Source: a virus (taxonomy: Duplodnaviria > Caudoviricetes). From it: 50,231 bases of DNA. The stretch covers positions 1 to 50,231 of the IMG/VR virus record IMGVR_UViG_3300030376_004672. One strand, written 5' to 3'. The notes beneath the pieces were generated by a model. The model was given only the letters and a program-made list of their open reading frames with translations, was not told the DNA's origin and did no database searches. Below, in pieces: positions 6,733 to 35,349 of this stretch; the first letter of the stretch is position 1; every line of letters begins with the position of its first letter. The position numbers and the translations under genes are program-made.

Positions 6733-7004
6733 GTAATACTGAAATTAAATTAAAAATAATTGAAGCAGGACAAAAGGCAGTCGATGAATTGATTAGTGTG
6801 GCTAAAGAAAAAATAGTTACCGGAAGCGAAGATGATTTGTCGGCTGATAGATTAAAAAATGCAGCAGCTACAAAAAAGTTAGCAATATTTGATGCATTTG
6901 AAATACTAAATAGAATCGAACAAGAAAGAGATGTTATTGAACTAGAAAGTAAAGGTATAAAACAAACAACAAATCAGGGTTTTGCAGAAAGACGTTCTAA
7001 ATAA
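6729..7004 (+). CDS. Putative terminase small subunit
   Basis: 91-aa helical ORF directly upstream of and overlapping TerL; ATGA coupling with the previous gene. Confidence 0.55.
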   Translation: MSNTEIKLKIIEAGQKAVDELISVAKEKIVTGSEDDLSADRLKNAAATKKLAIFDAFEILNRIEQERDVIELESKGIKQTTNQGFAERRSK

Positions 7005-9228: not shown

Positions 9229-11660
9229 AAGATATAAAAATAGATATAAGTGCAGCCGGTTTTCCAAGTCAATTTGTGTCTGATGCTAAAAAAGCAACAG
9301 TAGAGTTTGGTTTACAGATTGGTCAAGCAATACAATATGAGTGGTTTAGAAAGGATGGAGTAGGGTGTAGATACTATAATCAATGGGGTAATTTTAATAG
9401 ATTAAGATTATATGCTCGTGGTGAACAATCAGTAGGAAAATATAAAAACGAATTAGCTGTTGATGGAGACTTGTCTTACTTAAATTTAGATTGGTCTATA
9501 GTTCCTGTAATTCCTAAGTTTGTTGACATTGTTGTAAATGGAATGTCTGACAGATTGTTTAAAGTTGAAGCATATGCACAAGATGCAATGTCTCAAGCAA
9601 AGCGTTCAAAATATCAAGATATGGTTGAGGGTCAAATGTCTGCTAAACCTATTCTTCAAAACATTTCTAAAAATTTTGATGTTGACCCTTTTGTTGTACA
9701 ACCTGACAGTTTGCCTGAAACAGATGATGAGCTTCAGTTGTTTATGAATTTAAATTATAAACCTGCTATTGAGATAGCTGAAGAAGAAGCAATCAATACA
9801 TTATTTGATGATAATCATTATCAAGATATTAGAAAAAGATTAGATTATGATATTACTGTTTGTGGAATAGCGTGTGCTAAACATGAATTTTTAGAAGGTA
9901 GTGGTGTAACAATAACTTATGTTGACCCTGCAAATTTAGTATACAGTTACACAGAAGATAAACATTTTAAAGATTGTTTTTATTGGGGTGAAATCAAAAC
10001 CGTTCCTATAATAGAGCTGATGAAGATTGACCCATCATTAACAAATGAAGATTTAGAAAAGATAAGCAAATACAGTCAATCATGGTATGACTATTTTAAC
10101 ACAGCACAGTATTATCAGAATAGTATTTTTTATAGAGATACTGCTACCATTATGTATTTTAATTATAAAACCACAAAAGAATTTGTTTATAAAAAGAAAA
10201 AATTAGAGGGCGGAGGAGCTAGGGTTCTTGAAAAAGATGACCAATTTAATCCGCCTGATGAAGTACAGGAAGAGGGTAATTTTGAAAAAATTAGTAAACG
10301 TATAGATGTATGGTATGAAGGAGTAATGGTAATGGGTACTAACTTTATTTTAAAATGGGAATTATCTAAAAATATGGTTAGACCAAAATCAGCATCTCAA
10401 CATGCAATGCCTAATTATGTTGCTGTTGCACCTAGAATGTATAAGGGTAATATTGAGTCTTTAACAAGACGAATGATACCATTTGCTGATTTAATTCAAA
10501 TCACTCACTTAAAGCTACAGCAAGTAATTGCTAAAACTGTCCCTGACGGTGTTTATATTGACGCTGACGGGCTTAATGAGGTAGACCTAGGTACAGGTAA
10601 CGCTTATAACCCCGAAGACGCTCTACGGCTTTATTTTCAAACAGGTAGTGTTGTAGGTAGAAGTTATACTCAAGATGGTGAATTTAATAATGGTAGAGTC
10701 CCGATTCAACAGCTTACTTCTAATAGTGGAGCGAGTAAAACTCAAATGCTTTTAACTAATTATAACCATTATATGGATATGATTAGAACTGTTACAGGAC
10801 TAAATGAAGCTAGAGATGGTTCTACACCAAATCCTGACGCTTTAGTTGGTGTTCAAAAATTAGCAGCATTAAATTCCAATACCGCAACAAGACATATTTT
10901 GGATGCAAGTTTATATTTATATAGAACTCTTGCGGAAGCATTGTCGTATAGAGTGGCAGATGTGTTAGAGTATTCTGCTTTTAAAGAAGAGTTTATAAAT
11001 CAAATAGGTAAATACAATGTGTCTATATTAAAAGAAATAAATGATTTATATATATATGATTTTGGAATATTTATAGAAGTTTCTCCTGATGAAGAAGAAA
11101 AAGCTATGTTAGAACAAAATATTCAAATGGCTTTATCTAAGCAAGACATAAACTTGGAAGACGCAATTGATATCAGAGCTTTAAGAAATATTAAACTTGC
11201 AAATCAATTGTTGAAAATGAAGCGTAAAAGAAAGAAAGAAGAAGACGAAAAAAGAGAAATGACTAAACAAGCTGTACTTGCAAAACAACAGCAAATGTCT
11301 CAACAAATGGCTGCTCAAACAGCAATGCAAAAAATTCAAGCTGAAGGTCAAATGAAAATGCAATACAGACAAGCAGATGTTGCTTTTGAAATAGAAAAAC
11401 TTAAAGTGGAAGCTGAATTAAAACGTTCACTTATGGCTGAAGAGTTTCAATATAACATGCAGATAAAAGGACAAGAAGATGCTGCTTTATCAAAAAGAGA
11501 AAGTGATAGAGAAAAAGCAAAAGCTAATAGAATAAGTCAACAAAATACGGAACAATCTAATCTGATAAATCAAAAGAAAAATAATTTACCTCCTCAAAGT
11601 TTTGAATCTAATGAGGACAGTTTAGATGGTTTTAATCTATCGGAATTTGACCCAAGATAG
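9225..11660 (+). CDS. Portal protein
   Basis: 811 aa after TerL; IPKFVDIVVNGM, TGLNEARDG and YDFGIF motifs, Q-rich C-terminal coiled coil. Confidence 0.85.
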   Translation: MKDIKIDISAAGFPSQFVSDAKKATVEFGLQIGQAIQYEWFRKDGVGCRYYNQWGNFNRLRLYARGEQSVGKYKNELAVDGDLSYLNLDWSIVPVIPKFVDIVVNGMSDRLFKVEAYAQDAMSQAKRSKYQDMVEGQMSAKPILQNISKNFDVDPFVVQPDSLPETDDELQLFMNLNYKPAIEIAEEEAINTLFDDNHYQDIRKRLDYDITVCGIACAKHEFLEGSGVTITYVDPANLVYSYTEDKHFKDCFYWGEIKTVPIIELMKIDPSLTNEDLEKISKYSQSWYDYFNTAQYYQNSIFYRDTATIMYFNYKTTKEFVYKKKKLEGGGARVLEKDDQFNPPDEVQEEGNFEKISKRIDVWYEGVMVMGTNFILKWELSKNMVRPKSASQHAMPNYVAVAPRMYKGNIESLTRRMIPFADLIQITHLKLQQVIAKTVPDGVYIDADGLNEVDLGTGNAYNPEDALRLYFQTGSVVGRSYTQDGEFNNGRVPIQQLTSNSGASKTQMLLTNYNHYMDMIRTVTGLNEARDGSTPNPDALVGVQKLAALNSNTATRHILDASLYLYRTLAEALSYRVADVLEYSAFKEEFINQIGKYNVSILKEINDLYIYDFGIFIEVSPDEEEKAMLEQNIQMALSKQDINLEDAIDIRALRNIKLANQLLKMKRKRKKEEDEKREMTKQAVLAKQQQMSQQMAAQTAMQKIQAEGQMKMQYRQADVAFEIEKLKVEAELKRSLMAEEFQYNMQIKGQEDAALSKRESDREKAKANRISQQNTEQSNLINQKKNNLPPQSFESNEDSLDGFNLSEFDPR

Positions 11661-11718: not shown

Positions 11719-12798
11719 ATGAATCTAGAAAATATTAAAGTAAGAGAAGTTAGTGCACCTGAAAAAGGGAAAGCTGAAGTCGAACAAGAGCTTTTAGATA
11801 AAGCTGAAGAAAAAAAAGTTGTTGACGAACAAGAAGTTGTTGAAGAGACAATAGTAGATACTCCTGCATTAGATGATAATACAGTTTTAGAGTATTTAGG
11901 AAAAAGATATAATAAGACCATCAATTCATTTGATGAGTTGATGCAAGAAAGAGAGGAACAAGAAGCATTGCCTGAAGATGTTTCATCTTTCTTAAAATAT
12001 AAAAAAGAAACAGGTAGAGGAATTGAAGACTATGTTCGTTTGAATAGAGACTTTGATGAATTACAACCTGATAATTTGTTAGCTGAGTATTATTTAGCAA
12101 CTGATGAAGCTATAGATACAGAAGATGTAGACGATTTGTTAGATGAGTTTAGATTTGATGAAGATGTAGATGATGCTAAAGTTGTTAAGAAAAAAAGGTT
12201 AGCAAAAAAACGAGCTGTTGTTCAAGCTAAGAAGTATTTTAATGAACAGAAAGAACAATACAAACAACCCCTTGAGTCAAGTGCGGGAGTTAGTTCTGAT
12301 GACAATAAAAAACTAGACGAGTATGAACAATATCTCAAGAGTGTGAGAAGTAATGAGGAAGCGGCTAGAAAAAAGCAAGATTGGTTTTCTAAAAAAACTG
12401 ACGAGGTTTTTTCAAGTGAGTTCAAAGGTTTTGAGTTTACCGTAGGCGATAAGAATGTTACCTATAGTCCGGGTGATGCATCTGAATTGAAATCTAAACA
12501 ATCTAATGTTTTGAATTTTATAAACAAGTTTGTAGATGGAGAAACAGGATTGATGAAAGATGCACAGGGATACCACAGAGCTTTATCACTAGCTATGAAT
12601 CCTGAGAAGTTTGCCAAATTCTTTTATGAATTAGGTCAAGCCGAAGGAGTTGAAGATGTTGTCCGTAAAACAAAAAATGTTAGTATGGATATTCGTAAAA
12701 CTCCCGAAACTGCAACTACTCAAGGAGGAATGAAAGTTAGAGCTTTAAACACCGACTCAGGTCGAGGTTTGAAGATTAAAAGTATGAAAAAGAAATAA
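11719..12798 (+). CDS. Capsid scaffolding protein (putative)
   Basis: Very acidic, helical, lies between portal and capsid genes. Confidence 0.7.
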   Translation: MNLENIKVREVSAPEKGKAEVEQELLDKAEEKKVVDEQEVVEETIVDTPALDDNTVLEYLGKRYNKTINSFDELMQEREEQEALPEDVSSFLKYKKETGRGIEDYVRLNRDFDELQPDNLLAEYYLATDEAIDTEDVDDLLDEFRFDEDVDDAKVVKKKRLAKKRAVVQAKKYFNEQKEQYKQPLESSAGVSSDDNKKLDEYEQYLKSVRSNEEAARKKQDWFSKKTDEVFSSEFKGFEFTVGDKNVTYSPGDASELKSKQSNVLNFINKFVDGETGLMKDAQGYHRALSLAMNPEKFAKFFYELGQAEGVEDVVRKTKNVSMDIRKTPETATTQGGMKVRALNTDSGRGLKIKSMKKK

Positions 12799-12821: not shown

Positions 12822-14276
12822 ATGGCAGTATTAGCAAGTCCAACGTTTCAGTTGCAGCCAAGTGCTCAACAGGTAGCGTTGTCGTCAAACTATATTACTA
12901 ATGCTCAATTTAACTTTTTGAATCAGTATCTTCCTGATACTTATGAAAAAGAGTTTGAGAGATATGGTAATAGAACTGTTTCATCATTCTTAAGAATGGT
13001 AGGAGCAGAAATGCCTTCTAACTCTGACCTTATCAAATGGGCAGAACAAGGAAGGTTACATATTAAATATGTAAACTGTGTCTTAGGTGGTGCAGGTGCA
13101 GGTGCAGCTTCAGAAACTTTTACAGTTCCTGCAGCACAAATTGACCCTGCAAGACAACCATCAGGTTCAGTAGCACCGGCAGGTGCAGCAGGGCAAATCG
13201 GTATCAGAAAAGGTCAAACAGTAATGATTTCTGATGATACAGCAGGTTCTGCATTAAACAACAAAGGTATTGTAACAGCGGTTACAGCTACTACATTTAC
13301 TGTTGCAATGTATGAAGCAGCAGGTTTAGCAGCTTACGCAGGTACAGCATCAGTTTTCATCTATGGTTCTGAATTTAAAAAAGGAACTGTTGGAATGGAA
13401 GGTGGATTAATATCTAACGACTTCATTTTTGAAAACTCTCCAATTATATTAAAAGATAAGTACCAAGTATCAGGTTCTGATATGGCACAAATCGGTTGGA
13501 TTGAAGTTCAAACAGAAGATGGAGCAAGTGGATATTTATGGTATCTTAAATCAGAACACGAAACTAGATTACGTTTCGATGATTACTTAGAAACAGCGAT
13601 GGTAGAAGCTGTACCGGCAGAAGCAGGTTCAGGTGTTGCTACTCAAGCAGTTTATGCAGATGCAGGTAACAAAGGTTCTGAAGGGGTATTCTACGTTGTA
13701 GAAGCAAGAGGTAACGTTTGGGGTGCAGGAAATCCGGCTGATTTAGCAGGATTTGATAGCATTATTCAAAGATTAGACAAGCAAGGTTCTATTGAAGAAA
13801 ATGTAATTTTCGTAAACAGAGCATTCTCGTTTGACATTGATGATATGTTAGCAGCTCAAAATTCTTATGGTGCAGGTGGTTCTTCATATGGACTATTTGA
13901 CAATGATGAGGAAATGGCTCTTAACTTAGGATTTACAGGATTTAGAAGAGGTTACGACTTCTATAAGTCTGAATGGAAATACCTAAATGACCCAACAATG
14001 AGAGGTGGATTAGTAGGTGGAGCAATTAATGGACTATTAGTTCCTGCAGGTTCTACTACAGTTTATGACCAAATTTTAGGTAAAAACGCTAAGAGACCTT
14101 ATTTGCATGTTAGATACAGAGCTTCAGAAGCTGAAGACAGACGTTATAAGTCTTGGATTACAGGTTCTGCAGGTGGAGCAACAAACAAAGATTTAGATGC
14201 AATGGAAGTTAACTTCCTTTCTGAAAGATGTGTTTGTACTCTAGGTGCTAACAATTTCTTCTTATTCAAGTCATAA
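12822..14276 (+). CDS. Major capsid protein
   Basis: 484 aa after scaffold, strongly biased codons, followed by a terminator; WAEQGRLH and GFTGFRRGYDFYK motifs as I recall from Bacteroidota podovirus MCPs. Confidence 0.85.
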   Translation: MAVLASPTFQLQPSAQQVALSSNYITNAQFNFLNQYLPDTYEKEFERYGNRTVSSFLRMVGAEMPSNSDLIKWAEQGRLHIKYVNCVLGGAGAGAASETFTVPAAQIDPARQPSGSVAPAGAAGQIGIRKGQTVMISDDTAGSALNNKGIVTAVTATTFTVAMYEAAGLAAYAGTASVFIYGSEFKKGTVGMEGGLISNDFIFENSPIILKDKYQVSGSDMAQIGWIEVQTEDGASGYLWYLKSEHETRLRFDDYLETAMVEAVPAEAGSGVATQAVYADAGNKGSEGVFYVVEARGNVWGAGNPADLAGFDSIIQRLDKQGSIEENVIFVNRAFSFDIDDMLAAQNSYGAGGSSYGLFDNDEEMALNLGFTGFRRGYDFYKSEWKYLNDPTMRGGLVGGAINGLLVPAGSTTVYDQILGKNAKRPYLHVRYRASEAEDRRYKSWITGSAGGATNKDLDAMEVNFLSERCVCTLGANNFFLFKS

Positions 14277-16823: not shown

Positions 16824-19800
16824 ATGGCAAAATTACAAAGAAATTTCGTACAGGGCAAAATGAATAAAAGCGTTGATGAACGCTTAGTTCCTAATGGACA
16901 ATACATAGATGCTTTAAATGTTAGACTTGGTTCTACTGAAGATTCTGAAATAGGTTCGGTAGAAAACTCTAAGGGAAACACGCAGCTTACTACATTAACT
17001 TTTAACGGGACGAATCTGAGCAATCAAGCAAGATGTATTGGTGCTTATGAGGATGGAGCTAATCAAACAATTTATTGGTTTGTACATGACCCTGCGTATA
17101 CCGTAGGTGCAGCAGGTAAAATAGATATGATTGTTTCATATGATGCACAAGTTGATACAGTAACTTATCATGTGATTACCATGGATGACGCAACCGGCAA
17201 CCAAACTACTATATTAAATTTCAACCCTACATATTTAATTCATAGTGTAAATAAAATAGAAGATTTACTTTTTTTTACAGATAATTATAATCCTCCGAGA
17301 TTTATAAATGTTAAAAGAAACTATCCTAACCCTTTTGGAAATATTGACCAAGTAAGTGCAGAATCATTATTGGTTTTAAAAAAACCCCCTATTACTAGTC
17401 CTTCTTTTAATATGTATACTGCTTCAGGTGAAAATACGTTTTTGGAAGACAAACTACTTTGTTTTGCTTATAGATATGAATATGGAGATAATGATTTTTC
17501 GGCTACTTCTCAATGGTCAAAAGCAGCTTTTATTCCAAAAGCATTTGGTATAAGTAGTGCTGCGTATACAAATGAAGGAATGGAAAATAGTAGAAATGGA
17601 GTTGAGATAACATTTAACACAGGAGGACCTTTAGTAAAAGGAGTAGAGGTTTTATTTAAAAACTCCGGTGATGACGTAATTAAAGTTATTGATAATTTTG
17701 ATAAAGCTGAATATGGATATACTGATAATCAAGATGTTACAATAACTTTTAACAGCAATCAAATATTTACTGTACTACCAACTGACCAAATAGGGAGATT
17801 ATTTGATAATGTTCCTTTAAAAGCTGTTACACAAACAATGATTGGTAATAGAATAATATATGGTAATTATTTTGAACAATACAATATGGTTGACTACGCA
17901 GGTAGTGAAGTTATTTTAGATTATTCGATAGCATTAGCAAGTGAAGTTGTAGGTCAATTTGCACTAACTGAAACTAAAATAAGTTCTGATTATACTTTTG
18001 ACCCCACTTCAGGAACACAATCTATAGCTGATTCTGCAGTTACAATAGATTTTACTGACATAAGTTTAGTTCAAGGTGGTTTATTAGAAATAGATATTAT
18101 TTTTAATCACGCACAATTTACAGGTTCAGGAGGACCTACAGCCCAAACTACATCAATAAATATAGGATTTGGATTTAATTTAGTTAATAATTATCCCAAT
18201 GCTTTAGCATTAGCTACCTCAACAGAGTTTATTAATGCTGTTGGAACATCTTCAACAGTATCAACTATAGCTAACGCTTGTACCGGCAACACATGGACAG
18301 ATACATGGAATTGTGATATGCCAAACAACTTAGATACTTATTTTGCTTACAACTCAGGAATTACTCCTGAAGCGTATCCTAATGTTGGACCTATTAACAT
18401 AATAACTGACCCTGCAAATGTTAATCAGTTTACTCTTCAATTTCCTGCTATGGCTTGGTCGGATTGTGATGCCGCATCCTGTACACCTGCAAATATTGTG
18501 TATGAGTATTTTAAAATTGGTAGTGTAGATGCACAATATAGAGAGCTTTCTGAAACTGAAAGTTTACATAGTGACTTTGATTATGCAGTCGGTATTGTAT
18601 ATATGGATGAATTTAATAGGTCTTCACCTGCATTACTTGCACCTGAAGCGAGTCTTCATGTACCTTGTAGTGCGTCATTGTTTAAAAATAGAATAGATGT
18701 TACTATACCTACCGAAATGAATCCTCCGGTTTGGGCACATCGATATAAGTTTGTTTTAAAACCAACTAACACCACATATAATACTATATATACTAATATA
18801 TTTTTTAATGACCCTGCAACCTCTGCTACATATTTATTATTAGAAGGGGAGAATAATGAAAAAGTTAGTGAGGGTCAAAGATTAAAAGTTAAGGCAGATA
18901 CCAATGGTGCTTTGGGTAGATGTGCTTATGCTACGATATTAGAAAAAAAATCTCAAGCTGCAGGGTTTGTAAAAGTTCCATCTGCTCTCAACCCTTCTAC
19001 GGATATTGATGCACCTGCAGGAACATATGCAAAAGTTATTGCCGATGATTTTACAGTTGTAACTTTAAATGAAGATGGGACAGAAGCATCGGAATTAGCG
19101 GTTATAGAAGAAAAAAATTCTACTTATACCGATAGTGCAGGTAATTCTGTATATAATGCTTTACTAGTAAATACATTTGATGCATCAAGCACAAATTATG
19201 TGGACTATGATGTACCTCAAGGTAGTAGAATTAATTTGTATATTAAGTTTGAAAGAAGAGGTCCGGGTAAAGGTAATGGAAATTGTGAAAGGAGAATATA
19301 TACTCTTGACTTAAAGTTAACTTCAAGTTCAACTTATTCTAATTTTGCTGAGTGGTTTAATGGAGATAATATACAAGAATATTTAGATGGTGGAGATTGG
19401 GTTGGTGGTGATACAGAAGCAGGAAATCCTCCTGAAAACATTTATGATTCAACCTTATTAACTACTGCTTTTGACAGAATGCCTACTAGCTCAGAAGCTC
19501 AAATGACGGCAAACTCGGTAACTAAAAATAAATATAAATTTGTAAGAAGTTCAACGGATAACGGTTTATGGTTTTGCACTACAGGAACAGAAAGTTGTAG
19601 CGGTGCATTTTCTAAGAAAAAAAGAAGGTCTTCAAGTGAAATGTCTGTTATTGTTTTTAGAGCTGAAAGCACACTTATATTTGAATCAGAACCACAAGAA
19701 GCATTGCCTGATGTATTTTTTGAAGGAGACCAAAGTTATCCAATCATTAATCCCGGTCTATCTAATGCAAGACATGGCGGAGGGACAGCTACTCAAATAA

Positions 19801-21395
19801 CTAATGGTAATGTAACTCAGACGGGTGTTACTGCAGGTTTTATAAAAAGTACATTATATAATTGTTACACCTTTGGAAATGGTGCAGAAAGCTATAAAAT
19901 ATTAGATAGGTTAGGAGGTGCTGAGTTAGCACCGGGCAATAGGGTTGTAACGGTTTCTCAACAAGATTACAGGGAAATGCATAGATTTGCTGATTTAACA
20001 TATAGTGGTAGATTTAGTAATGAGTCAAATATAAACCGACTTAATGAGTTCAACTTAAGTATCTCTAATTTTAAAATCCTTGAAGATTCTTTCGGTTCTA
20101 TTCAAAAATTATTTGGTAGAGAAACCGATGTATTAGTATTACAAGAGGATAAGATTTCATATGTACTTGCAGGTAAAAATTTATTATCGGATTCAGCAGG
20201 TGGAGGTCAAATAACTTCTGTGCCTGAAATATTAGGTACGCAAATAGCTAGAATTGAAGAGTTTGGTATTAGTCATAATCCGGAAAGTTTTGTTTGTTAT
20301 GGAAGTGAAAAATATTTTACTGACGCAAAAAGAGGTGCAGTAATTTTATTATCAGGAGTAACTGCACAATCTGAACAACTTGCAGTAATATCTGAATTAG
20401 GTATGCGTGGATGGTTTAGAGATTTATTTATAGAGAGTTTTTCAACTCAAAAACTTGGTGGATACGACCCTTATATGAATGAATATGTGTTGTCTAATAA
20501 CTGTATTGAGTTACCTCAAATTCCACAAGTTGAAAATTGCGGTATACAATTGACATACAATAAGTTAAAAGCAGCAAATACACCAAGAAGTTTTACAGTT
20601 GAGCTTGGACAACCTTTAGGTGAGGTGACACTAACATATACTGTACCGATTTTAGCTGCAGGTTTAACATTTAAAATAGATGTGCTATACGCAGGAGTTA
20701 CTACTTCCACAGGTGATGTAACTGTAGGAGGTACTTTAACATTTGATAAAAATGATTTATCAATCAACACTTGTCTAATTACTCTAACAGTTAGTGATGT
20801 CGGGTCTACGGGGGGTCAAATAGATGGTCTAAACCTTGGGGTTAGTTGTCCATCACCCAACACAATAACAGTAAAAGCTATAGTTATTACTACAGACGCA
20901 AACGCAGGTTTAACGATTAGAAGGGGTTATAATTACACCGACAATAGTGTTTCTTATCCATCCAATATTGAACAGGTAATAATGACATCAGGCACTTCAA
21001 CTCCATTAGTATCTAGCTTTTATAGCATTACAGGGTATCAAGGAATTAATTCTATTCCTGTTAATGGTTCAACAGTAGAAATATTTTCTTTAAAGAAACC
21101 TGACGACACTTATACTTTTGACGTAACAAGTGATAGATTTGGGTATTTAAGAAGTGCAACAAATTATAATAATAATAGTACCGATTTAAATAATTTATTA
21201 ACAGCTATAACAAGTGCTAGTAATTGGTTGACTACCAACACATCACTAGCTCCGGGTAAATATTATGGGGATTTTACTATGGATGCCACTAGCAATGATT
21301 ATTTATATTTGGTATATGATTTAAGAACAACTACAAATGTAAGTTTGTGTTACTCAAACACTTCATTTAACGACGCATGTTGTGGGTGTTCATAA
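16824..21395 (+). CDS. Tail nozzle / 'stabilization' protein, N-terminal part (P22 gp10/T7 gp12 analogue)
   Basis: 1523 aa; starts F..GKMNK..DERLVPNGQY.DALN; LFFTDN.NPPR, FGIS.NPESF and YFTDAKRG.V motifs. Confidence 0.7.
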   Translation: MAKLQRNFVQGKMNKSVDERLVPNGQYIDALNVRLGSTEDSEIGSVENSKGNTQLTTLTFNGTNLSNQARCIGAYEDGANQTIYWFVHDPAYTVGAAGKIDMIVSYDAQVDTVTYHVITMDDATGNQTTILNFNPTYLIHSVNKIEDLLFFTDNYNPPRFINVKRNYPNPFGNIDQVSAESLLVLKKPPITSPSFNMYTASGENTFLEDKLLCFAYRYEYGDNDFSATSQWSKAAFIPKAFGISSAAYTNEGMENSRNGVEITFNTGGPLVKGVEVLFKNSGDDVIKVIDNFDKAEYGYTDNQDVTITFNSNQIFTVLPTDQIGRLFDNVPLKAVTQTMIGNRIIYGNYFEQYNMVDYAGSEVILDYSIALASEVVGQFALTETKISSDYTFDPTSGTQSIADSAVTIDFTDISLVQGGLLEIDIIFNHAQFTGSGGPTAQTTSINIGFGFNLVNNYPNALALATSTEFINAVGTSSTVSTIANACTGNTWTDTWNCDMPNNLDTYFAYNSGITPEAYPNVGPINIITDPANVNQFTLQFPAMAWSDCDAASCTPANIVYEYFKIGSVDAQYRELSETESLHSDFDYAVGIVYMDEFNRSSPALLAPEASLHVPCSASLFKNRIDVTIPTEMNPPVWAHRYKFVLKPTNTTYNTIYTNIFFNDPATSATYLLLEGENNEKVSEGQRLKVKADTNGALGRCAYATILEKKSQAAGFVKVPSALNPSTDIDAPAGTYAKVIADDFTVVTLNEDGTEASELAVIEEKNSTYTDSAGNSVYNALLVNTFDASSTNYVDYDVPQGSRINLYIKFERRGPGKGNGNCERRIYTLDLKLTSSSTYSNFAEWFNGDNIQEYLDGGDWVGGDTEAGNPPENIYDSTLLTTAFDRMPTSSEAQMTANSVTKNKYKFVRSSTDNGLWFCTTGTESCSGAFSKKKRRSSSEMSVIVFRAESTLIFESEPQEALPDVFFEGDQSYPIINPGLSNARHGGGTATQITNGNVTQTGVTAGFIKSTLYNCYTFGNGAESYKILDRLGGAELAPGNRVVTVSQQDYREMHRFADLTYSGRFSNESNINRLNEFNLSISNFKILEDSFGSIQKLFGRETDVLVLQEDKISYVLAGKNLLSDSAGGGQITSVPEILGTQIARIEEFGISHNPESFVCYGSEKYFTDAKRGAVILLSGVTAQSEQLAVISELGMRGWFRDLFIESFSTQKLGGYDPYMNEYVLSNNCIELPQIPQVENCGIQLTYNKLKAANTPRSFTVELGQPLGEVTLTYTVPILAAGLTFKIDVLYAGVTTSTGDVTVGGTLTFDKNDLSINTCLITLTVSDVGSTGGQIDGLNLGVSCPSPNTITVKAIVITTDANAGLTIRRGYNYTDNSVSYPSNIEQVIMTSGTSTPLVSSFYSITGYQGINSIPVNGSTVEIFSLKKPDDTYTFDVTSDRFGYLRSATNYNNNSTDLNNLLTAITSASNWLTTNTSLAPGKYYGDFTMDATSNDYLYLVYDLRTTTNVSLCYSNTSFNDACCGCS

Positions 21396-26536: not shown

Positions 26537-26538
26537 AT

Positions 26539-29500
26539 ATGAACGAAAAAGCATTTAAACAGTTATACGAGGAGTTTGTTAACACCGGATATAAAGGTGA
26601 TAGAACAGAGTTTATAGAACTTTTATCTACAAACACCGATGCTTTTATGCAAGGTTTTAATGCCTTCACATCAACCGGTTATAACGGTGATGAAGATGCA
26701 TTCGCTGAATTAATAGGGGTTACATCTCCTCTAAAAAAAAAAGACGAACCTCAAGAAAGTGGCGAATCAGTTGTGGAAGATGGTCAATTACTCTCCGATA
26801 CTCCTGATAAAAAAACTGCAATCACAGATAGAGATATTCCTCAAATGCTTGAGAGAATTGAAGCTACAGTTAATGGACAACCATTATGGGAAGTAGTAGG
26901 TGCTAGGTCTGCCGAAGAATTAAGAGAAGCTATAAACATAAATACAGACTACGAACAAAGAGTTGATGCTGACGCTATGCCGCCGGAGGTTCAAGATGAC
27001 CCTGCATTGATGGCAGAATATATAAAAAACTTCCCTGCACCAACCGAAAGACAAATGGAACTCTATGCAGAATTTTCAGGAGGTAACTATGATGAAATCT
27101 TATATAACTTTGATGAAGAAGAAGGAACAGGGGATGTAATTCCTGTAGACCTACCTGAAGTAGCTGTCGAAAAAGAAGCAAAGAAAAGAACGAAAGAAGA
27201 AGTTATAGAACAAAAGGATGAGCTACTACTAGATATGGTAGGGGAAAGTAATCAGACACCACAGGATGTAATAGATAAGGTTGATAATATAGATAAAGAA
27301 GCAAGAGCTAAAGTTACAGAACAAGTAGGTGTAGATTTAAGCAATGCTTCATATTATAATGAAGATGGCACAGTTAATTTAGATAAAGTAAATTTTGAAA
27401 GACAAGTTGAAATTGCTAAAGAAGAAATAGACCCTAACTTTGATGAGTTTGAAGAAGGGGTGACTGCAAGACAAAGACAATTACGAAACCAAAGAATAAA
27501 AGCTACTAAGAAACTTCAAGAAGAATTTGAAAAAGTAGAATCAAGAGATGATTTAAGTGTTGAGGATTTAACATTATTAAATAATATGTTAAATGAAGAC
27601 CTTCCATTGATTACAGGTGAACTGATAGCTAATGATGACAATGAACAAACCATAGATTTTTTAAATGAAAAGTTTGGAAAATATAATTTAGTTTTTACTC
27701 CAACATCCTTCGGTGGCATGAGAGTTACTAGAGCAGATGGTAAAGCTGATATAGATATTAATATAGACCCTAGTATAGGGTCTACCGAAAAAGAGAAACA
27801 AGCATTGGCTAATTTCATTACATTAAATGCTGATGTTCCTGATGTAGAGCTGATGGATGTAGAAGGTTACCAACAAAAAGCTAAAAGAGCTCAGGACATG
27901 AGAAGAGGAGCTAAAAACGGCATTGATGGATATGAAATGGTAGTGAGTGAAAAGGACGGAGAGTTCTTGGTACACCCTACATTGTTTCCAAAAAACTATG
28001 ATGACCAATCTAGCTTTCCAAGTTCATGGGAAAAACTTGACAATGACGATGCATATATTTTTGCACTACAACAAAACGAAGTGTTCAAGTTTAAATCTAA
28101 AAAAGATGCAGAAAAATTTATATTAGATTTCCAAGGTGTGTCTACTCTTGACGGTGAAGCTGATGCATTTTATAGAGAGAGAGGTTTAGATTATACCGCA
28201 GTCAAAGCTGCTATGGATGAGTATGAGCAAGTTCGTGATGAGATTATATTTATTGAAGAATTATATTTTAATACTGTACAAGAATATCAAGGTCCGGGAG
28301 TTGGACCTTTTGGAATGGTTTCACAGAATAGTAAACTTATACCTGAAAATTTAAGAGACCCAAGTACAGAAGATGTAGTTACACCACAAGTGAGAGAACT
28401 AAAAGATTTAACTCTTGCTGACCAAAAAAGATTTGGTCACCTTTTTATTAATGGTTTACCTGTAGCAGAGCTACAAGACCGTCTACCGGAATTATATAGA
28501 CGTAGAGATATTTTATTCGATGCCAACTTTAGTGATGACATTACAAAAGCTAGAGAAGATTTTGATGTTTACTTAAGAAAGCAATACGATGAAAGAAGTA
28601 AAAAAAGTTTAGACAATAACAACAAGGTTAAAGAAGCATATGAGAACCTTGAAAAAGAATCTTTGTTAGAGTTCCAAGTAAAACTCGAAGATTTACCTGA
28701 GTATGTTCGTGGAAATTTAGAGAAGCTAGAACCTTTTCAGGTTAACATGGCAAGTAAAATTTACGGAGATTATTTAATGTTGCAGAACGAACAACAAGTA
28801 TTGAGAGTTGAATATGATTTAGCTTCCAATTATTTCAATGCAATGGAAAATAAAAATGTAAAAGGCGAATATATTGATAATCTTGGTGGATGGAAGAATG
28901 AGTTCTTTAAAGGGTTAGAACAAGGAAATGCATTGAATGCTATTCTTCAATACTCAATGGGTGTTGATATGTTTGATTATTGGTCAGATACTGTTGACCC
29001 TGATGATACTATGTCAGTAGCATTAGCTATTGTATCAAGTGCACAAGCTAAAGCTGAAATGGGTGATAGCAGGACAATGTTAGCTTGGAATGATTCAAAA
29101 ACAGCTCAAGAATCTTGGGAAGTATTTTTAGATAATCCTTTTGAATGGGCAATGCAATTGTCAGCAAATAGTGTAGGGCAAATGTTGGAGTTTGGCTCAC
29201 AAATTATACCTGCTGCAGGAGCGACAGGATTGGGTGCAGGAGCAGTAGCAGGACCGGGAGGAGCTTGGGTTGGAGCAGGTTATGGTTTAAGAACAGGTTA
29301 TGCAGCTACAGGATATGCGGTTGAATATACTAATTCAATCTTTGAAGCAATAAGTGAAGCCGGATATGACGTAATGAATCCATATTCTGTAGAGTTAGCT
29401 CTTCAAGATGAAGCCATGTGGAAAGCTGCAGCAGCTAGAGGTAATCAAAGAGGTATACCAATTTCAGTTGTAAACTATTTTACTGCAGGTTTAGCAGGTA

Positions 29501-32500
29501 AAATAATAAACAAGACAGGACCTGTCATATCTTTAAAATCAGGTTTAGTAAAAGGTGGTGCTATTGCTGCAGAGGTAGGTATTCAAACTACAGGTGAAGC
29601 ATTTAGTGAAGTTGCGGGTCAAGGAACTGAGCTGATGTTAGGCGAAGACCTAGGTGGTGTTAATTTAGAAACTAATGAGCCATACATTATACGTTCACGA
29701 AAAAGTTTTGATGGAAAAGAAATTGCAGCTGAAGCCGGTGGCTCACTTGGTAGTGGTAGTGCAGTAACTAACTATATGGTTAATACATATATGATATCTA
29801 GAGATAATCAGTTTGATACTTTTATTCAAAACTTAACCAACCCTGAATTTTTATCTAATTATAATCATGCTACTGAAGAGCAGATTATAGATTATGTAAA
29901 TAAAGCTGTAAAAAATAAAAAGCTAACTGAAAACGAAGCACAAAATATAAGAAAGAATTTAGGATTAAAAAGAGATGCACAAAACGTAGCAGGTGAAGGT
30001 GCACCTAAAGATGTTGTTTCTAGATTGATGCAGCTAATAAATGCACAAGAAATATTATCAGCCGATAGAAATAGAAAACAAATATATAATCAAAAACTAA
30101 AGGAGATTGCTGATGAGATTACCACACTTGTTACCACACATAAATTGTCAGATAACCCAACTAATATTACTGATGGTTTAGTGGGATTAGATGTAGGAAA
30201 AATTAGAAGATTTAACAGACCTAGAAACCAATTTCAAATTGGAAGTTTTGTAACCACAGATTATGAGAAATTTAAAAAGAAATTAAACAACGTCACAGAC
30301 CCTGATGCATTATTTGCTATACAAGTCTATGACGATAACAACTTAAGTGAAGAAGCAAGTAACTTAGTAGCAAAAAAAATTAATGAGCTAAAGAAAAAAC
30401 ACGCAGCTCAAATGGGGATTGAGTTAGACCCCTCTGAACTTCTAACCGTAACTACAGATATACAAGAAAATGCCGGTACGCAGCAAACGACAGATGAGGT
30501 GGTTAGCAGCCAACAGGAAGGACCTGTTAAAAAAGTGGACGAGGGAGTATCCCGTAAACCTAAAAAACCTACCCGAAAAAGTCAAGAAGAAAAAAATGAG
30601 GTAACTAAACCTGAAGAGATAGTTGAGGGAGAAACTGTTATCCCTTTTACTAGAAAAAATAAAAAAGGAGATAAAACTCAAACTTATAAAGAAATAGTAG
30701 TAGATAAAACCAATCCTGAAAATGAACAAACTAAAGGGGTTAAGGTGGTAAGCTATGACGGGGAAAGAATGGGTAGAGACGGTAAGCCAAAAAGAATAAA
30801 ATCTGCATCAGTCCCTATAGAAGAAACAAGGTTTAAAAACTTTAATGTAAAAGAAAAATTAATAGAAGACGGGCTTATAGACGAAGATTTTAAGGGTGAT
30901 ATAGAAGTGCTAGAGGTAATGCTTGTTCCTGCCGAGACAAAATCGGAAGCCGCAGGTAATACAATATTTAAAGTAAAAGTAAAAGAAAAAGGAGAATCAG
31001 GGATGATGGCGGATATTTATGACGGCATCATAGCTGAAGAATCTATAGACGAGGTGACAGAACAAATAGATGAAGAAGCTATTCAAGATTTTGAAAAATC
31101 TTTAGATGAAGATAGTAAGGTAGATTTTAAAGCAGAAGAACAAGAAAGCGATAACTACTTTGAAAGACTATCTAAAGATGAAGAGGAAAATGTAAACAAG
31201 TTAGTAGATTTTGCTAATAAATCATTTCCGGGTACAATGATTAATGTAGATTCCGAAACATTTCAAAATGTTTTAAATGAACCCGGCACACAACAATATT
31301 TAAAAGGGAATGAAATAGTGTATGGTATTACTAAAGATGGTGATATATATATTAATCCTGACGTACATAAAAACCAAAGCTCATTATTTAACACAGCTAT
31401 TCATGAGATGGGTCATATTTGGGTGGATTATTTAAAAACCACTCCTCAAGGTGTAAAAATATATAATAGAGGTAAAGAACTTGTAAGTAAAACAGAAGAG
31501 TATAAAAAACAATTAAAAAGATTTAAGGGTGATAAGCAGAAAGCTATTGATGAAACAATGGCTGTTCTTATTGGAAACAAAGGTGAGTCTATTGTAAACA
31601 AAACTCTGCAGCAGAAATTTAAAGATTGGTTAAATAGTATGTGGGCTTACATAAAGAAATCGTTTAAGATGTCCAAAGATTTGACTGACCAAGAAATACA
31701 GGACTTAAATCTTGATGGTTTCTTAAACACAGCTATAGCTGATATATTTAGTGGAGAACCAATTGAGCTGACTGACGTACAAAAGAAAAAACTTAAGAAT
31801 CCTGATGTGTTATTCAAAAAAGATTTATCTATAGAAGAGATAATATACAGAGGAAGACAACAAGCCCTTCCTGAAGTAAATATTCAGGAGGTGTTAAGAA
31901 GAAGACATGGTCTTAGTAAGAAAGAAGCTGTAGCGGCGATGCAGGAAGAAAGAGCACCTGTGCCTAGAGCTTTCGGTAACATTGAAGGTGGTATCAACGT
32001 TGGTAGAAAAATCCTTGCCGAAGTACAAGCAACAGAAAATAAAAGAAAAAGAAAACAAAAACGAGAAGGTAAAATTGTAACCACTAAAGAAGAAAGAGCT
32101 CAACGTATAACTGAGTTAAAAAATAATCCTACATTTAAAAAACTTTCTGAGGTAGACCAACAAAGATTAATAGTTGCTTACGATAAAGAGTTTGGTAGTG
32201 TAGCGGGTGTTGAAACACAACGAGAAATTAAGTCTATAATTGATGAACTAAAAGGAAGAAAGAAAGAGCAAAAATTATCTCAAGGAATCAAAAACAGATT
32301 GACTAATATTATTAAAGGGTTAATTCCTAGGTCTGACAATATTACTAAGCAAACATTAACAAGTCTTAATAAAAGAGTAGCACAAGTAACTCAAGAAAAC
32401 TTTGATGCTATACTTGAAGAGGTGCAGGAGATAGCTAAAAAAGTAGAGGAAAAAGATAAAGCCCAACAACGTAAGAAAATTCAAGATTACGTTAATAAGA

Positions 32501-35349
32501 AAAAGAAAACGAGAAAAGGTACTACAAAAAAACCTGAAGCCGGTACAATTGAATATAGAGGTATTACATATTTTGCAGCTGTCGATAAAATAATTAACAT
32601 GACTCCTGACGAGTTAACGGCGAAGCAAGAAGAGCTTGATTCTAAAGAAGCTCAAATAGATGCAGCTTTAAAGAAAGAAGCTGAGGGTATAGATTTAACT
32701 TTAGAAGAAGCTATTCTTTTAGGTGAGGTTGAAGCGGTTGCTCGTTTCGGTAACATTGAGCAGATGACACTTTCAGAACTTCAAGAAGTGATGAGAGCAT
32801 TACGAGAGGATAGTAAAGAATCATCAGAGAGGTTATTTAAAAGAAGACAAAAGAGAAGAGAAGAAGCGGAAAAATTAAACGACCAAGCCGATTCAGATAT
32901 TCAAACTAACAATCCATCTTTATTTAATGAAGATGGTTCTGTAAAAACAAATCAAGAGTTTCAAAGTGAGCGTATGAACTTTCTAACTTCTTTGAAGAAA
33001 AGGGGTGCTATAAAAACCATAGCTAAAGGTTATGAAGCTATAATGAAAGGTTATGAAGACTTTTTTGGTGGTAAGAATTGGATTAAAGGAATTAGACAAA
33101 TGGTTGACGTTACGGTCAGTAACTCAAGAACTGTATTCAATATGCTTGATGGTGTGTATGGAACTAAATTTTTTGAAAAACAATTTCATCAGCGTTTAGC
33201 TAGAGCTAACTTCAATAGAGAGCAAGGTGAAAGAAGAGTTAAGACTATACTTGATAACATAGCAAAGAAAGCAGGGATTAAAAAAGGAAGAATAATAGGT
33301 ATTCCACAATTATTGCAATCTAAAGGACCTTTAGAAATTAAAAACACCAAAGGTAAACCTATTAGTTATAGTGCAGAAATGTTGATGTATCACTATGCAA
33401 TGAGTTTGAATGAGGATACAAGAAAGAGAATAGCTGAACAAGGAATTACTGATGAGGTGATAGAACAAATAAAAACCCATCTTGGTCCTGAAGCAATTGC
33501 ATATGTTGATGGGGTTGTTGAATATTTATCGGATACTTACTTTGATGAGGTAAATGAAGTTTACATTAGAAACAATGATGTGAGTTTAGGAAAGATAGAT
33601 AATTACTTTCCGGTAAGAATTGACACCACAGAGTCTATACGAAAAGAGGACATGGTAACTACTAAATCACCTTATATGGATGGGTTTAATGCTATATCAC
33701 CTAAATCTTTAAGAGCAAGAGGTAAGACAGGGGTTATTGACCTTACTACTTTGTTTGATAACACATTAAATACTCATATTGAAGCTAATGAAAGATACAA
33801 AGCATATGCAGATGAGGTTAAAACCTTCAACAAGATGTTGCAGTTTGACTCAGTAAAACTTTTATTAAGAGCTACAGGAACAGAAGGGATTGTAAATCAA
33901 ACTTTAAATTATTCTGTTAATGGAGCGGTTGCATTTAAAAACAGTACAAACAAATCTTGGTGGATTAATTGGATGCAAGGTAGTTTTGTTGCGTATATAT
34001 TAAATAATAAGTTATGGCAGATACCAAAACAGGCAAGTTCCTTGATTATGGGATTCACCAACATGGATGTAAAGGGTGGCAAATTAGGTGCACTAGGTAG
34101 ATTAAGAGCTAAAGGGGGAATTAAAGGTCTTCTCGCACAAGGTCCGGCTACAATGGTAGATGCAACGGTATTTGTAGGAAGATATTTACAATTACTTTTA
34201 GCTACTTTGTTAGGAAAAGAAGGAGGAATCAAAACAGCTCGAAGAATATCAGCAGGTTTTGAAAACAGACTACAAGATGCATTGTCAGGAAGAAACTTAA
34301 CACAATTATCTTCAGGTCAAGAATTAGGTGCTAATATTACGGTTGATATAGGAGAAGGTGTAATGAATTTTATTTTCAAACTACCCGGTATTAAAGGTAA
34401 TATAGAGATGACACCAAGACAAGTATCGGAAAAAATCTCAGCAATTATGGGTGCAGGTACAAGTATTGGAGATATATTGGGAGTGCTTGGTTATTTAGCT
34501 GTCTACAATCAAGACATAGCCAACGGTATGACGGAAACAGAAGCTGCATTAAGATTTGTTGAGTACAATTTAACTCAGCAGTCTCGTAGAGATATGGACA
34601 AAGGAGGTCTTCAAAGAGAAGCAGGTTTACTAAAATTATTTACTACGTTTGGAAGCACAATGTTACTTCAGTTAAATGACGTTGCATATAGAGGTAGAAA
34701 CATATCTAGAGCAGTACAAAGAGCAGCAGCTGAACTTAAAAAAGGTAATGTAAGAAAAGCAATTGATGAAGCTCCGAAAAAAGAAGATGTAAGAGGATTT
34801 ACTTTATCAGCTGCACTTGCTAACATGGCTTTCGTAGCTGTATCACAATTAATGGTTTTATTAAGAGGGACGGATAAAGAAAAAGAAAAAGCAGTTGAGG
34901 AGATTATGCTACAAAGATGGGGTGTTACAATGATGTCAGAACTACCTATCTTTGGAAATGCGTTTATAGATTTAGCATATCAATTAGAAACAGGTAAAGG
35001 TGTCCCTCCGTTTAAAAAAAGTACAGTAGTAGACCCTATTGAACGAATATCAAGAGAGATTCAAAAGGATTTGAGTGAAAAAAAATATGGCAAGGTTAGC
35101 GAAACATTACTAGAATTTTTCATCTTAAAAGCACAAGTCGACCCTGTAGCTTCTGCTTATGACCTTTTAATGGGAGAGGGTGATGTGGAAGAAAACATAT
35201 ACATTATGCTAGGTATACCTAAATCTCAAAGACCAAAAAGAGGGGGAGGTTTGAATAAAACAGAGATGTTAAAGTGGGCAAAAGAAAATAATCCTGATTT
35301 ATATAAACAACTTCTTGAAATAAGAAATGCAAAATCTAAAAGTAAATAG
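26539..35349 (+). CDS. Giant internal virion / large polyvalent protein with zincin metallopeptidase motif
   Basis: 2936 aa; duplicated N-terminal helix pair; Gly/Ala hydrophobic segment; HEMGH at 31402-31416 with a downstream Glu; long coiled coils. Confidence 0.7.
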   Translation: MNEKAFKQLYEEFVNTGYKGDRTEFIELLSTNTDAFMQGFNAFTSTGYNGDEDAFAELIGVTSPLKKKDEPQESGESVVEDGQLLSDTPDKKTAITDRDIPQMLERIEATVNGQPLWEVVGARSAEELREAININTDYEQRVDADAMPPEVQDDPALMAEYIKNFPAPTERQMELYAEFSGGNYDEILYNFDEEEGTGDVIPVDLPEVAVEKEAKKRTKEEVIEQKDELLLDMVGESNQTPQDVIDKVDNIDKEARAKVTEQVGVDLSNASYYNEDGTVNLDKVNFERQVEIAKEEIDPNFDEFEEGVTARQRQLRNQRIKATKKLQEEFEKVESRDDLSVEDLTLLNNMLNEDLPLITGELIANDDNEQTIDFLNEKFGKYNLVFTPTSFGGMRVTRADGKADIDINIDPSIGSTEKEKQALANFITLNADVPDVELMDVEGYQQKAKRAQDMRRGAKNGIDGYEMVVSEKDGEFLVHPTLFPKNYDDQSSFPSSWEKLDNDDAYIFALQQNEVFKFKSKKDAEKFILDFQGVSTLDGEADAFYRERGLDYTAVKAAMDEYEQVRDEIIFIEELYFNTVQEYQGPGVGPFGMVSQNSKLIPENLRDPSTEDVVTPQVRELKDLTLADQKRFGHLFINGLPVAELQDRLPELYRRRDILFDANFSDDITKAREDFDVYLRKQYDERSKKSLDNNNKVKEAYENLEKESLLEFQVKLEDLPEYVRGNLEKLEPFQVNMASKIYGDYLMLQNEQQVLRVEYDLASNYFNAMENKNVKGEYIDNLGGWKNEFFKGLEQGNALNAILQYSMGVDMFDYWSDTVDPDDTMSVALAIVSSAQAKAEMGDSRTMLAWNDSKTAQESWEVFLDNPFEWAMQLSANSVGQMLEFGSQIIPAAGATGLGAGAVAGPGGAWVGAGYGLRTGYAATGYAVEYTNSIFEAISEAGYDVMNPYSVELALQDEAMWKAAAARGNQRGIPISVVNYFTAGLAGKIINKTGPVISLKSGLVKGGAIAAEVGIQTTGEAFSEVAGQGTELMLGEDLGGVNLETNEPYIIRSRKSFDGKEIAAEAGGSLGSGSAVTNYMVNTYMISRDNQFDTFIQNLTNPEFLSNYNHATEEQIIDYVNKAVKNKKLTENEAQNIRKNLGLKRDAQNVAGEGAPKDVVSRLMQLINAQEILSADRNRKQIYNQKLKEIADEITTLVTTHKLSDNPTNITDGLVGLDVGKIRRFNRPRNQFQIGSFVTTDYEKFKKKLNNVTDPDALFAIQVYDDNNLSEEASNLVAKKINELKKKHAAQMGIELDPSELLTVTTDIQENAGTQQTTDEVVSSQQEGPVKKVDEGVSRKPKKPTRKSQEEKNEVTKPEEIVEGETVIPFTRKNKKGDKTQTYKEIVVDKTNPENEQTKGVKVVSYDGERMGRDGKPKRIKSASVPIEETRFKNFNVKEKLIEDGLIDEDFKGDIEVLEVMLVPAETKSEAAGNTIFKVKVKEKGESGMMADIYDGIIAEESIDEVTEQIDEEAIQDFEKSLDEDSKVDFKAEEQESDNYFERLSKDEEENVNKLVDFANKSFPGTMINVDSETFQNVLNEPGTQQYLKGNEIVYGITKDGDIYINPDVHKNQSSLFNTAIHEMGHIWVDYLKTTPQGVKIYNRGKELVSKTEEYKKQLKRFKGDKQKAIDETMAVLIGNKGESIVNKTLQQKFKDWLNSMWAYIKKSFKMSKDLTDQEIQDLNLDGFLNTAIADIFSGEPIELTDVQKKKLKNPDVLFKKDLSIEEIIYRGRQQALPEVNIQEVLRRRHGLSKKEAVAAMQEERAPVPRAFGNIEGGINVGRKILAEVQATENKRKRKQKREGKIVTTKEERAQRITELKNNPTFKKLSEVDQQRLIVAYDKEFGSVAGVETQREIKSIIDELKGRKKEQKLSQGIKNRLTNIIKGLIPRSDNITKQTLTSLNKRVAQVTQENFDAILEEVQEIAKKVEEKDKAQQRKKIQDYVNKKKKTRKGTTKKPEAGTIEYRGITYFAAVDKIINMTPDELTAKQEELDSKEAQIDAALKKEAEGIDLTLEEAILLGEVEAVARFGNIEQMTLSELQEVMRALREDSKESSERLFKRRQKRREEAEKLNDQADSDIQTNNPSLFNEDGSVKTNQEFQSERMNFLTSLKKRGAIKTIAKGYEAIMKGYEDFFGGKNWIKGIRQMVDVTVSNSRTVFNMLDGVYGTKFFEKQFHQRLARANFNREQGERRVKTILDNIAKKAGIKKGRIIGIPQLLQSKGPLEIKNTKGKPISYSAEMLMYHYAMSLNEDTRKRIAEQGITDEVIEQIKTHLGPEAIAYVDGVVEYLSDTYFDEVNEVYIRNNDVSLGKIDNYFPVRIDTTESIRKEDMVTTKSPYMDGFNAISPKSLRARGKTGVIDLTTLFDNTLNTHIEANERYKAYADEVKTFNKMLQFDSVKLLLRATGTEGIVNQTLNYSVNGAVAFKNSTNKSWWINWMQGSFVAYILNNKLWQIPKQASSLIMGFTNMDVKGGKLGALGRLRAKGGIKGLLAQGPATMVDATVFVGRYLQLLLATLLGKEGGIKTARRISAGFENRLQDALSGRNLTQLSSGQELGANITVDIGEGVMNFIFKLPGIKGNIEMTPRQVSEKISAIMGAGTSIGDILGVLGYLAVYNQDIANGMTETEAALRFVEYNLTQQSRRDMDKGGLQREAGLLKLFTTFGSTMLLQLNDVAYRGRNISRAVQRAAAELKKGNVRKAIDEAPKKEDVRGFTLSAALANMAFVAVSQLMVLLRGTDKEKEKAVEEIMLQRWGVTMMSELPIFGNAFIDLAYQLETGKGVPPFKKSTVVDPIERISREIQKDLSEKKYGKVSETLLEFFILKAQVDPVASAYDLLMGEGDVEENIYIMLGIPKSQRPKRGGGLNKTEMLKWAKENNPDLYKQLLEIRNAKSKSK
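30470..30604 (+). CDS. Nested +1-frame 44-aa basic protein MPVRSKRQMRWLAANRKDLLKKWTREYPVNLKNLPEKVKKKKMR
   Basis: ATG 30470 with A-rich upstream context and A at -3, TAA 30602-30604; resembles small phage proteins I recall as MPFKS.KQRRW..AN.P..AK.W...LPEKV. Confidence 0.65.
   Translation: MPVRSKRQMRWLAANRKDLLKKWTREYPVNLKNLPEKVKKKKMR

Follow-up and report, generated by a model that had tools for sequence, protein, structure and literature searches.

The window analysed here, the whole 50,231-nt stretch of viral DNA, is from a marine relative of Elemovirus. GenBank has 85 records that match its capsid gene, of which 68 are Elemovirus and 15 Cellulophaga phages, the other two being Panino and MW202828. 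The window also codes for tail fibres; the features that concern us are collected in Table 1. The giant gene that closes the structural block had no Pfam or PHROG match, so the label "ejection protein" given to its product in the initial annotation comes from its position. We infer that the product is likely a cargo or ejection protein from this placement and by analogy with phi18:3, in which the giant at the equivalent position is annotated as a virion protein from MS/MS, and with crAss001, which packages large cargo proteins (PMC10172136). The giant genes of close capsid relatives (L327-L335) are mosaic, with differing N- and C-terminal modules that join near the nested gene described below.

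TABLE 1. Features of the window, numbered from its first nucleotide.
Feature	Position	Strand	Remarks
Large terminase and portal genes	6982..11660	+	Context
Acidic gene between portal and capsid genes, 359 aa, scaffold by position	11719..12798	+	No nested copy here; hosts the nested gene in a sister clade
Major capsid protein gene	12822..14276	+	Used for the family tree
Crassvirus-type muzzle protein gene	16824..21395	+	Context
Giant host gene, 2936 aa, last of the structural block	26539..35349	+	HExxH at residue 1622; likely cargo/ejection protein, by position
In-frame TAA, six codons 5' of the ATG	30449..30451	+	Closes the nested frame upstream (from the sequence); frame open from 30452
A-rich start region without SD (A at -3, -6 and -12)	30454..30469	+	Likely initiation site; start context as in PMC6847099
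Overlapped host residues 1311-1355	30469..30603	+	Acidic, polar linker that shadows the peptide in the -1 frame; not under purifying selection
Nested gene, 44-aa basic peptide, family A, near phrog_1375	30470..30604	+	Predicted helical hairpin (residues 6-15 and 17-26) and K/R tail

The ORF that runs from the ATG at 30470 to the TAA at 30604 translates to exactly the 44-residue peptide quoted in the initial annotation, which had proposed it as a hidden gene, and it lies wholly inside ORF 26539-35349, on the same strand and in its +1 frame. The peptide has 16 K+R and only 3 D+E residues (pI 11.5), no Cys and no hydrophobic signal. The host frame at this place is an acidic, polar linker, in keeping with the low-complexity linker described earlier. 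The shift in local base composition reported with the ORF is real, but modest: its GC fraction is 0.444 against 0.345 for the gene as a whole, and 3.5% of 135-nt windows reach 0.444. When host residues were held fixed and codons redrawn (20,000 draws), an ATG followed by 44 open codons arose with P = 0.049, and the giant gene has seven ATG-started +1 ORFs of at least 30 aa, the nested ORF among them. The ORF on its own is thus not beyond chance, and it is conservation across relatives that decides whether it is real.

Contigs from three DNA runs of three studies cover the ORF with no differing letter inside it, and the contig of a fourth run covers part of it with one change; the ORF is no assembly artefact. 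No RNA dataset was found to contain the sequence. The expectation that annotation had missed the gene was borne out, in that all 68 Elemovirus records match the nested ORF, the 24 rows listed name only a structural protein there, and the one Elemovirus record examined in full leaves the ORF without annotation. Three other features of these giant genes and their surroundings were seen. At 26457-26558 (+) of the window a 33-aa +1 ORF that starts MP overlies a Gly/Ser/Ala repeat at the end of a 638-aa gene; its profile E-value is 1.3 and it is probably a shadow. An Elemovirus giant gene has a second basic +1 ORF with an A-rich start, of 40 aa, at host codon 883 (L037:33442), for which no relative was found among the loci compared. 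Finally, one giant gene has a single in-frame TAG (L024:4402-4404) 24 codons after the nested ORF, beyond which the frame continues without an ATG, reflecting either a split gene or a sequence error.

Conservation was assessed in an unbiased set of 12 relatives of the giant gene, chosen by the host segment more than 500 nt downstream of the nested ORF; the 12 represent 10 distinct cassettes, and one is the same contig as L001. At that junction all 12 have a basic ORF that starts with ATG and is read in the same frame; in eight it is a member of the family of the window peptide (family A) and in four of a second family (family B). The initial annotation had tied its proposal to a conserved ATG and open +1 frame in related giant genes, and both were found at each of these loci. 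A search with the host region just upstream of the ORF gave one locus, which was already known. Across codons 2-27 in six pairs of host-picked loci (one pair being of family B and one from GenBank records picked by capsid), pN/pS was 0.22 in the peptide frame (codon bootstrap 0.15-0.31) and 1.71 in the host frame (1.1-3.05), as simple Nei-Gojobori counts and not overlap-aware models. There were 53 changes at the third position of peptide codons as opposed to 20 at the second, which is the host wobble position (p = 1.4e-4). The 35 pairs drawn from all 70 nested family-A copies, loci that were partly chosen by the peptide itself, gave 0.24 for the peptide and 1.57 for the host frame, and pN/pS of the host flanks was 0.33 in the 13 closer pairs. 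It is the peptide frame that is under purifying selection and not the overlapped host residues, which drift; therefore the motif that the initial annotation noted in giant virion proteins is, as suggested there, an out-of-frame shadow of the peptide, a view with which the existence of free homologues agrees. A set picked by the scaffold-position gene was unusable as an unbiased test of selection because none of the 75 whole N-termini near the clade of the window carry the nested ORF (five more N-termini were cut). We regard the nested 44-codon ORF as almost certainly a real gene.

The kinship of the peptide to free-standing small phage proteins (the MPFKS family), put forward in the initial annotation, is supported by both a profile search, in which 976 protein clusters of 21-91 aa among 8000 scored match family A, and phmmer with the peptide alone as query (22 matches). 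In the Atlas, clusters of 43-48 aa without a name score 0.94-0.95, and through Barnyard gp9 a further 471 records, from actinophages, can be linked to the family. Phrog_1375 (PHROGs v4) is matched by 79 of 96 aligned family members, and the window peptide itself had no match to it at E 0.01. Against a set of 15 proteins the family profile gave E-values of 2e-10 for Barnyard gp9 and 1e-5 for Patience gp10, which by sequence is a distant member of family A. A word search with the single peptide sequence found nothing and tblastn against GenBank phages gave chance matches only, so that profiles are needed to see the family. Two of its free genes, in S-CBS2 (L294:5001) and C75C1 (L295:4001), are without annotation in their GenBank records. 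Our literature search, mostly of open-access papers, yielded none on family A or its nesting; its free members may appear in catalogues of small genes.

When viral contigs were searched with the peptide, 22 loci emerged, of which six are free and 16 nested (one of these truncated where its contig ends), and 42 of the best 80 of 474 viral matches were nested. The best 80 genome loci comprised 44 of a soil-bacterial subfamily, 25 free copies of phage type and 11 nested copies. Throughout, L003, L175 and L195, which satisfied a loose nesting rule through short or GC-rich frames, were classed as free. The bacterial subfamily (L147-L205) is chromosomal in soil Acidobacteriota/Gemmatimonadota, has an extra helix and a long K/R/A tail, and has mixed neighbours, two members adjoining ATP-dependent ligases. 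No convincing Pfam family was found among the 96 aligned members; DUF3008 (PF11450) was matched by none of them at E 0.1, and its Atlas score of 0.85 is only a lead. Sequence searches of the PDB returned repeat artefacts or nothing, and the best results of fold searches were E 0.36 (BFVD) and Z 2.9 (VIA), which show neither a new nor a known fold.

Family A matches 28 of 34 genomes, with one copy each, and the six without it are five family-B genomes and Panino. The copies are found in three kinds of place: nested in the giant gene, nested in the scaffold-position gene (in one clade), and free right behind the giant gene (in two lineages). Of the nested copies, 47 lie in genes of the giant-gene cluster and 24 in the gene that separates portal from capsid, with a small remainder in other long ORFs. 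To this remainder belong L088, L090 and L155, which cluster with neither the giant nor the scaffold gene of the window and are possibly independent captures; the host ORF of L155, from a Sulfuritalea bin, has an LPD38 domain. In a capsid tree (48 rows analysed quickly and a 29-row subset with care) the scaffold-nested phages form one clade (100/100), and the phages with a free copy behind the giant gene fall at two places inside the giant-nested clade, a single clade for them being rejected (p-AU 4e-75). The direction of these moves depends on rooting with Panino and on the long Elemovirus branch, and since giant genes are mosaic the capsid tree may not trace their history. Five giant genes with a free copy behind them have no MP-started +1 ORF, and the three that were aligned lack the host motif.

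Family B corresponds to phrog_2423, which among 25 genomes matches all five of family B and no other; their completeness is rated at 54-85%, and two of them have terminal repeats. In related giant genes family B occupies the equivalent nested position, in the same frame (L031:4604, L032:3884, L034:3884, and position 4001 of each of L119, L123 and L124), and in MW202867 it is free, directly after the coat gene. Profile comparison gave a probability of 2% for kinship of the two families, which we reject; both are predicted to be basic helical hairpins, and in the set tested they never occur together in one genome. A candidate third occupant of the slot, as yet only suggestive, is found in the cultured Baltiviruses phi18:3 (L292:29317), phi13:2 (L340:516) and phi19:3 (L341:516), which have an unannotated K/R-rich +1 ORF of 29-31 aa in the giant gene that starts MP and has an A-rich start. 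The changes in this ORF by codon position are 3/3/10 in one pair as against 6/4/8 and 6/2/5 in the others. Neither family A nor family B was matched in the whole record of Panino or in the structural halves of phi38:1 and phi18:3; the two families are therefore not universal.

These distributions bear on how the overlap arose. The initial annotation called the peptide overprinted, which in the de novo sense is contradicted by its free homologues in 976 clusters, actinophages and bacteria: the family is far wider than the overlap. Because it spans distant phages and bacteria, with nesting concentrated in one group, the small gene is likely the older frame, and in all likelihood an old small gene was captured in a tolerant linker of the host, the host linker being the newer frame. 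Such a capture needs a rare variant, since the -1 frame is open in only four of 65 free phage copies and averages 3.9 stops per 40 codons. Shifted back by one base, Lys-rich codons encode Glu, Gln and Lys, so that where the -1 frame lacks stops its product is an acidic spacer, and the -1 product indeed has 28% D/E and 14% hydrophobic residues. The nested copies have been recoded, codon 3 being TTC in 63 of 70 of them compared with 25 of 65 free ones. At the scaffold position the nested ORF begins between codons 43 and 72 of the open host frame, and the frames that contain it are 385-428 aa long (one cut at 338) versus 359 aa in the window, a difference that fits insertion.

The charge of the peptide and its gene neighbourhood suggest a role inside the head, in binding or neutralising DNA, to which we give even odds; they likewise favour the DNA-condensing or co-ejected product suggested in the initial annotation. 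Nineteen of 51 free copies have a terminase, portal, protease or capsid gene among their neighbours, a raw count that includes near-copies and has no base-rate control; it derives from 143 of 205 neighbours, at 51 of 65 loci, 36 of which had any match. Barnyard gp9 precedes the head protease, Adjutor gp10 lies two genes after the terminase and Patience gp10 follows the portal gene. In the phage family of the window all three known gene positions fall within the structural block. Patience gp10 is part of a run of protamine-like genes after the portal gene (gp111, 10, 11, 12, 13 and 17; L339:1882-5471), most of which are abundant in particles by mass spectrometry (PMC4324244). Table S1 of that paper gives gp10 one stringent spectrum in particles, four at 30 min and two at 2.5 h, and its basic neighbours, which are clear virion proteins, 30-153 particle spectra. 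One particle spectrum against 30-153 means that the gp10 datum supports expression and is weak for presence in the particle; K/R-rich peptides digest badly, yet the count seems low for an abundant virion protein. The capsid staple of Patience and Adjutor is gp4, in a paper whose accessible part has no mention of gp10 (PMC11965321); gp10 is set apart from the staple by its gene number.

Another possibility is that the peptide is a module for head targeting or packaging, its hairpin docking on the procapsid, scaffold or portal, so that it would be an assembly factor alone and a cargo carrier when fused. The family-A motif is carried by 499 longer proteins; of the 120 that were listed, 108 have it beginning no later than residue 3 (P0141-P0260; L039, L055, L083, L087, L097 and L113); it is the fact that the motif opens so many longer proteins that keeps this role alive. 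Their partners are otherwise unrelated by precomputed Pfam assignments and, going by accession, include what we take to be SET, DarA_N, LigD N-terminal, lysozyme, SNF2 and InPase domains. The hydrophobic core is conserved in family A, and free copies often adjoin the portal or terminase gene, as a docking module might. However, many of the fusions are single-member and could be read-throughs, and a tag would explain neither the unrelated basic peptides in the same slot nor the long basic tails of the bacterial subfamily. We consider a targeting role unlikely.

The peptide could also be a non-structural nucleic-acid binder that acts in the infected cell, in host takeover or in the control of translation or packaging. 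The more numerous spectra of Patience gp10 in infected cells than in particles would fit such a protein, as would the chromosomal relatives in bacteria and the mycobacteriophage Phipps, in which the family-A gene is far from the head genes. We think it quite improbable given the consistent placement within the structural block in this phage family, the head-gene neighbours of the free copies, and the free family-B gene directly behind the coat gene in MW202867.

Turning to translation, the claim of an A-rich start of Bacteroidota type holds for the window, which has A at -3, -6 and -12 and G at -13; in F. johnsoniae A at -3, -6, -12 and -13 replaces the SD sequence (PMC6847099). With a matrix built from 41 gene starts of the window the nested ATG ranks 14th of the 210 ATGs in the giant gene, and it ranks 10th of 210 for weak local folding. 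In 76 distinct nested copies the frequency of A is 0.79-0.88 at -11 to -13 and 0.67 at -3, and their median start-context score is 1.4 against -4.7 for 4932 other +1 ATGs, with related loci counted as independent. Synonymous host positions upstream are enriched in A beyond the usage of each gene (z 2.2-5.4, from related loci that are not independent). All of this suggests that the nested peptide is, with high probability, made from its own start. A +1 ribosomal frameshift, in which case the giant protein would be truncated, ending in a basic tail, and the peptide would not exist in free form, could be imagined from the frame of the ORF and its place just behind the N-terminal module of the giant protein. 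This is very unlikely considering that every nested copy scored has the ATG, which corresponds to residue 1 of the free family, that an in-frame stop lies a median of five codons upstream, that the upstream host positions are enriched in A as noted, and that the same ORF occurs inside an unrelated host gene. Least probable of all is that no peptide is made and the ORF is the shadow of a conserved host motif or its DNA an anchor for recombination in module shuffling, for although an ORF of this length is not rare and the cassette DNA is far more conserved than its flanks and sits at a module junction, frame-specific selection largely refutes this reading, free homologues exist, the host motif is absent where the gene lies outside the giant gene, and one-sided flank identity, as expected of an anchor, was seen in only one of 217 pairs.

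Our preferred explanation, of a captured old gene that is translated on its own and acts inside the head as a DNA-neutralising polycation, we hold with a probability of roughly 0.55. The small gene would have been captured in a tolerant linker of the giant gene, where it reads as a harmless acidic spacer in the host frame. After recoding, the gene probably travelled to the scaffold-position gene as a dual-coding cassette, and on two occasions a free copy behind the giant gene probably took the place of the nested one. Translation of the peptide probably begins at its own A-rich start, on the message of the structural genes; the product would then enter the head, where this small polycation would bind the packaged DNA and neutralise it.

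There are partial counterparts to this arrangement in other viruses. De novo overprinted viral genes such as B and E of phiX174 are dual coding, and resemble the present case in that one frame is disordered and tolerant; here, however, the polarity is likely reversed, the nested frame being widespread and the segment of the long gene tolerant and newer. T4 IPI-III are basic internal head proteins. Both they and the basic virion proteins of Patience (gp111, 11, 12, 13 and 17) are small, basic and encoded among head genes, as is the nested peptide, but no sequence or fold link between them and family A was found, and both the head location and the DNA binding are putative here. Family B is alike in being a small, basic predicted helical hairpin that occupies the same slot and frame and is also free in the head module; it differs in being unrelated to family A by profile and in never sharing a genome with it in the set tested. 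The known members of the phrog_1375/MPFKS family (Barnyard gp9, Adjutor gp10 and Patience gp10), although profile kin of the window peptide, are free genes with no function assigned. In the embedded spanins Rz/Rz1 of lambda, too, one small gene is completely enclosed by another of the same strand, out of frame, and spanins as a whole occur in several architectures (PMC6139136). No spanin family mixes embedded with overlapped or separated members, according to the portion of that survey available to us, whereas family A is embedded in two unrelated hosts and also free. The family-A peptide has no lipoprotein or membrane character and no sign of partnering its host protein, and with neither a lipobox Cys nor a signal peptide it was rejected as a two-component spanin. 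Comparable in discovery are the internal genes in Patience genes 91 and 20, which are nested on the same strand, were missed by annotation and were revealed by mass spectrometry, but which are conserved narrowly, in Barnyard only or nowhere (PMC4324244), while family A is very large, also free, and changes its host gene.

Taken more broadly, we tentatively raise the possibility that Bacteroidota podoviruses keep a swappable gene slot in acidic linkers, in which at least three unrelated protamine-like microgenes, one per genome, would travel as portable dual-coding cassettes between host genes and out of them. They may represent a hidden general class of DNA-neutralising head proteins, and the commonest of them would double as an N-terminal module for the packaging of cargo enzymes. 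Most embedded genes known from phages are either fixed pairs or young frames that arose by overprinting; in this case an old, widespread gene is found in two unrelated hosts and also free, and a single phage family offers a natural series for overlap arising by capture, in which unrelated basic genes substitute for one another. A recurring "motif" of giant virion proteins is explained as a frame shadow. The cultured Elemoviruses (68 records), the Baltiviruses and many actinophages make direct tests possible, and one of the largest unannotated families of small proteins becomes a candidate for offsetting the charge of DNA in the heads of tailed phages.
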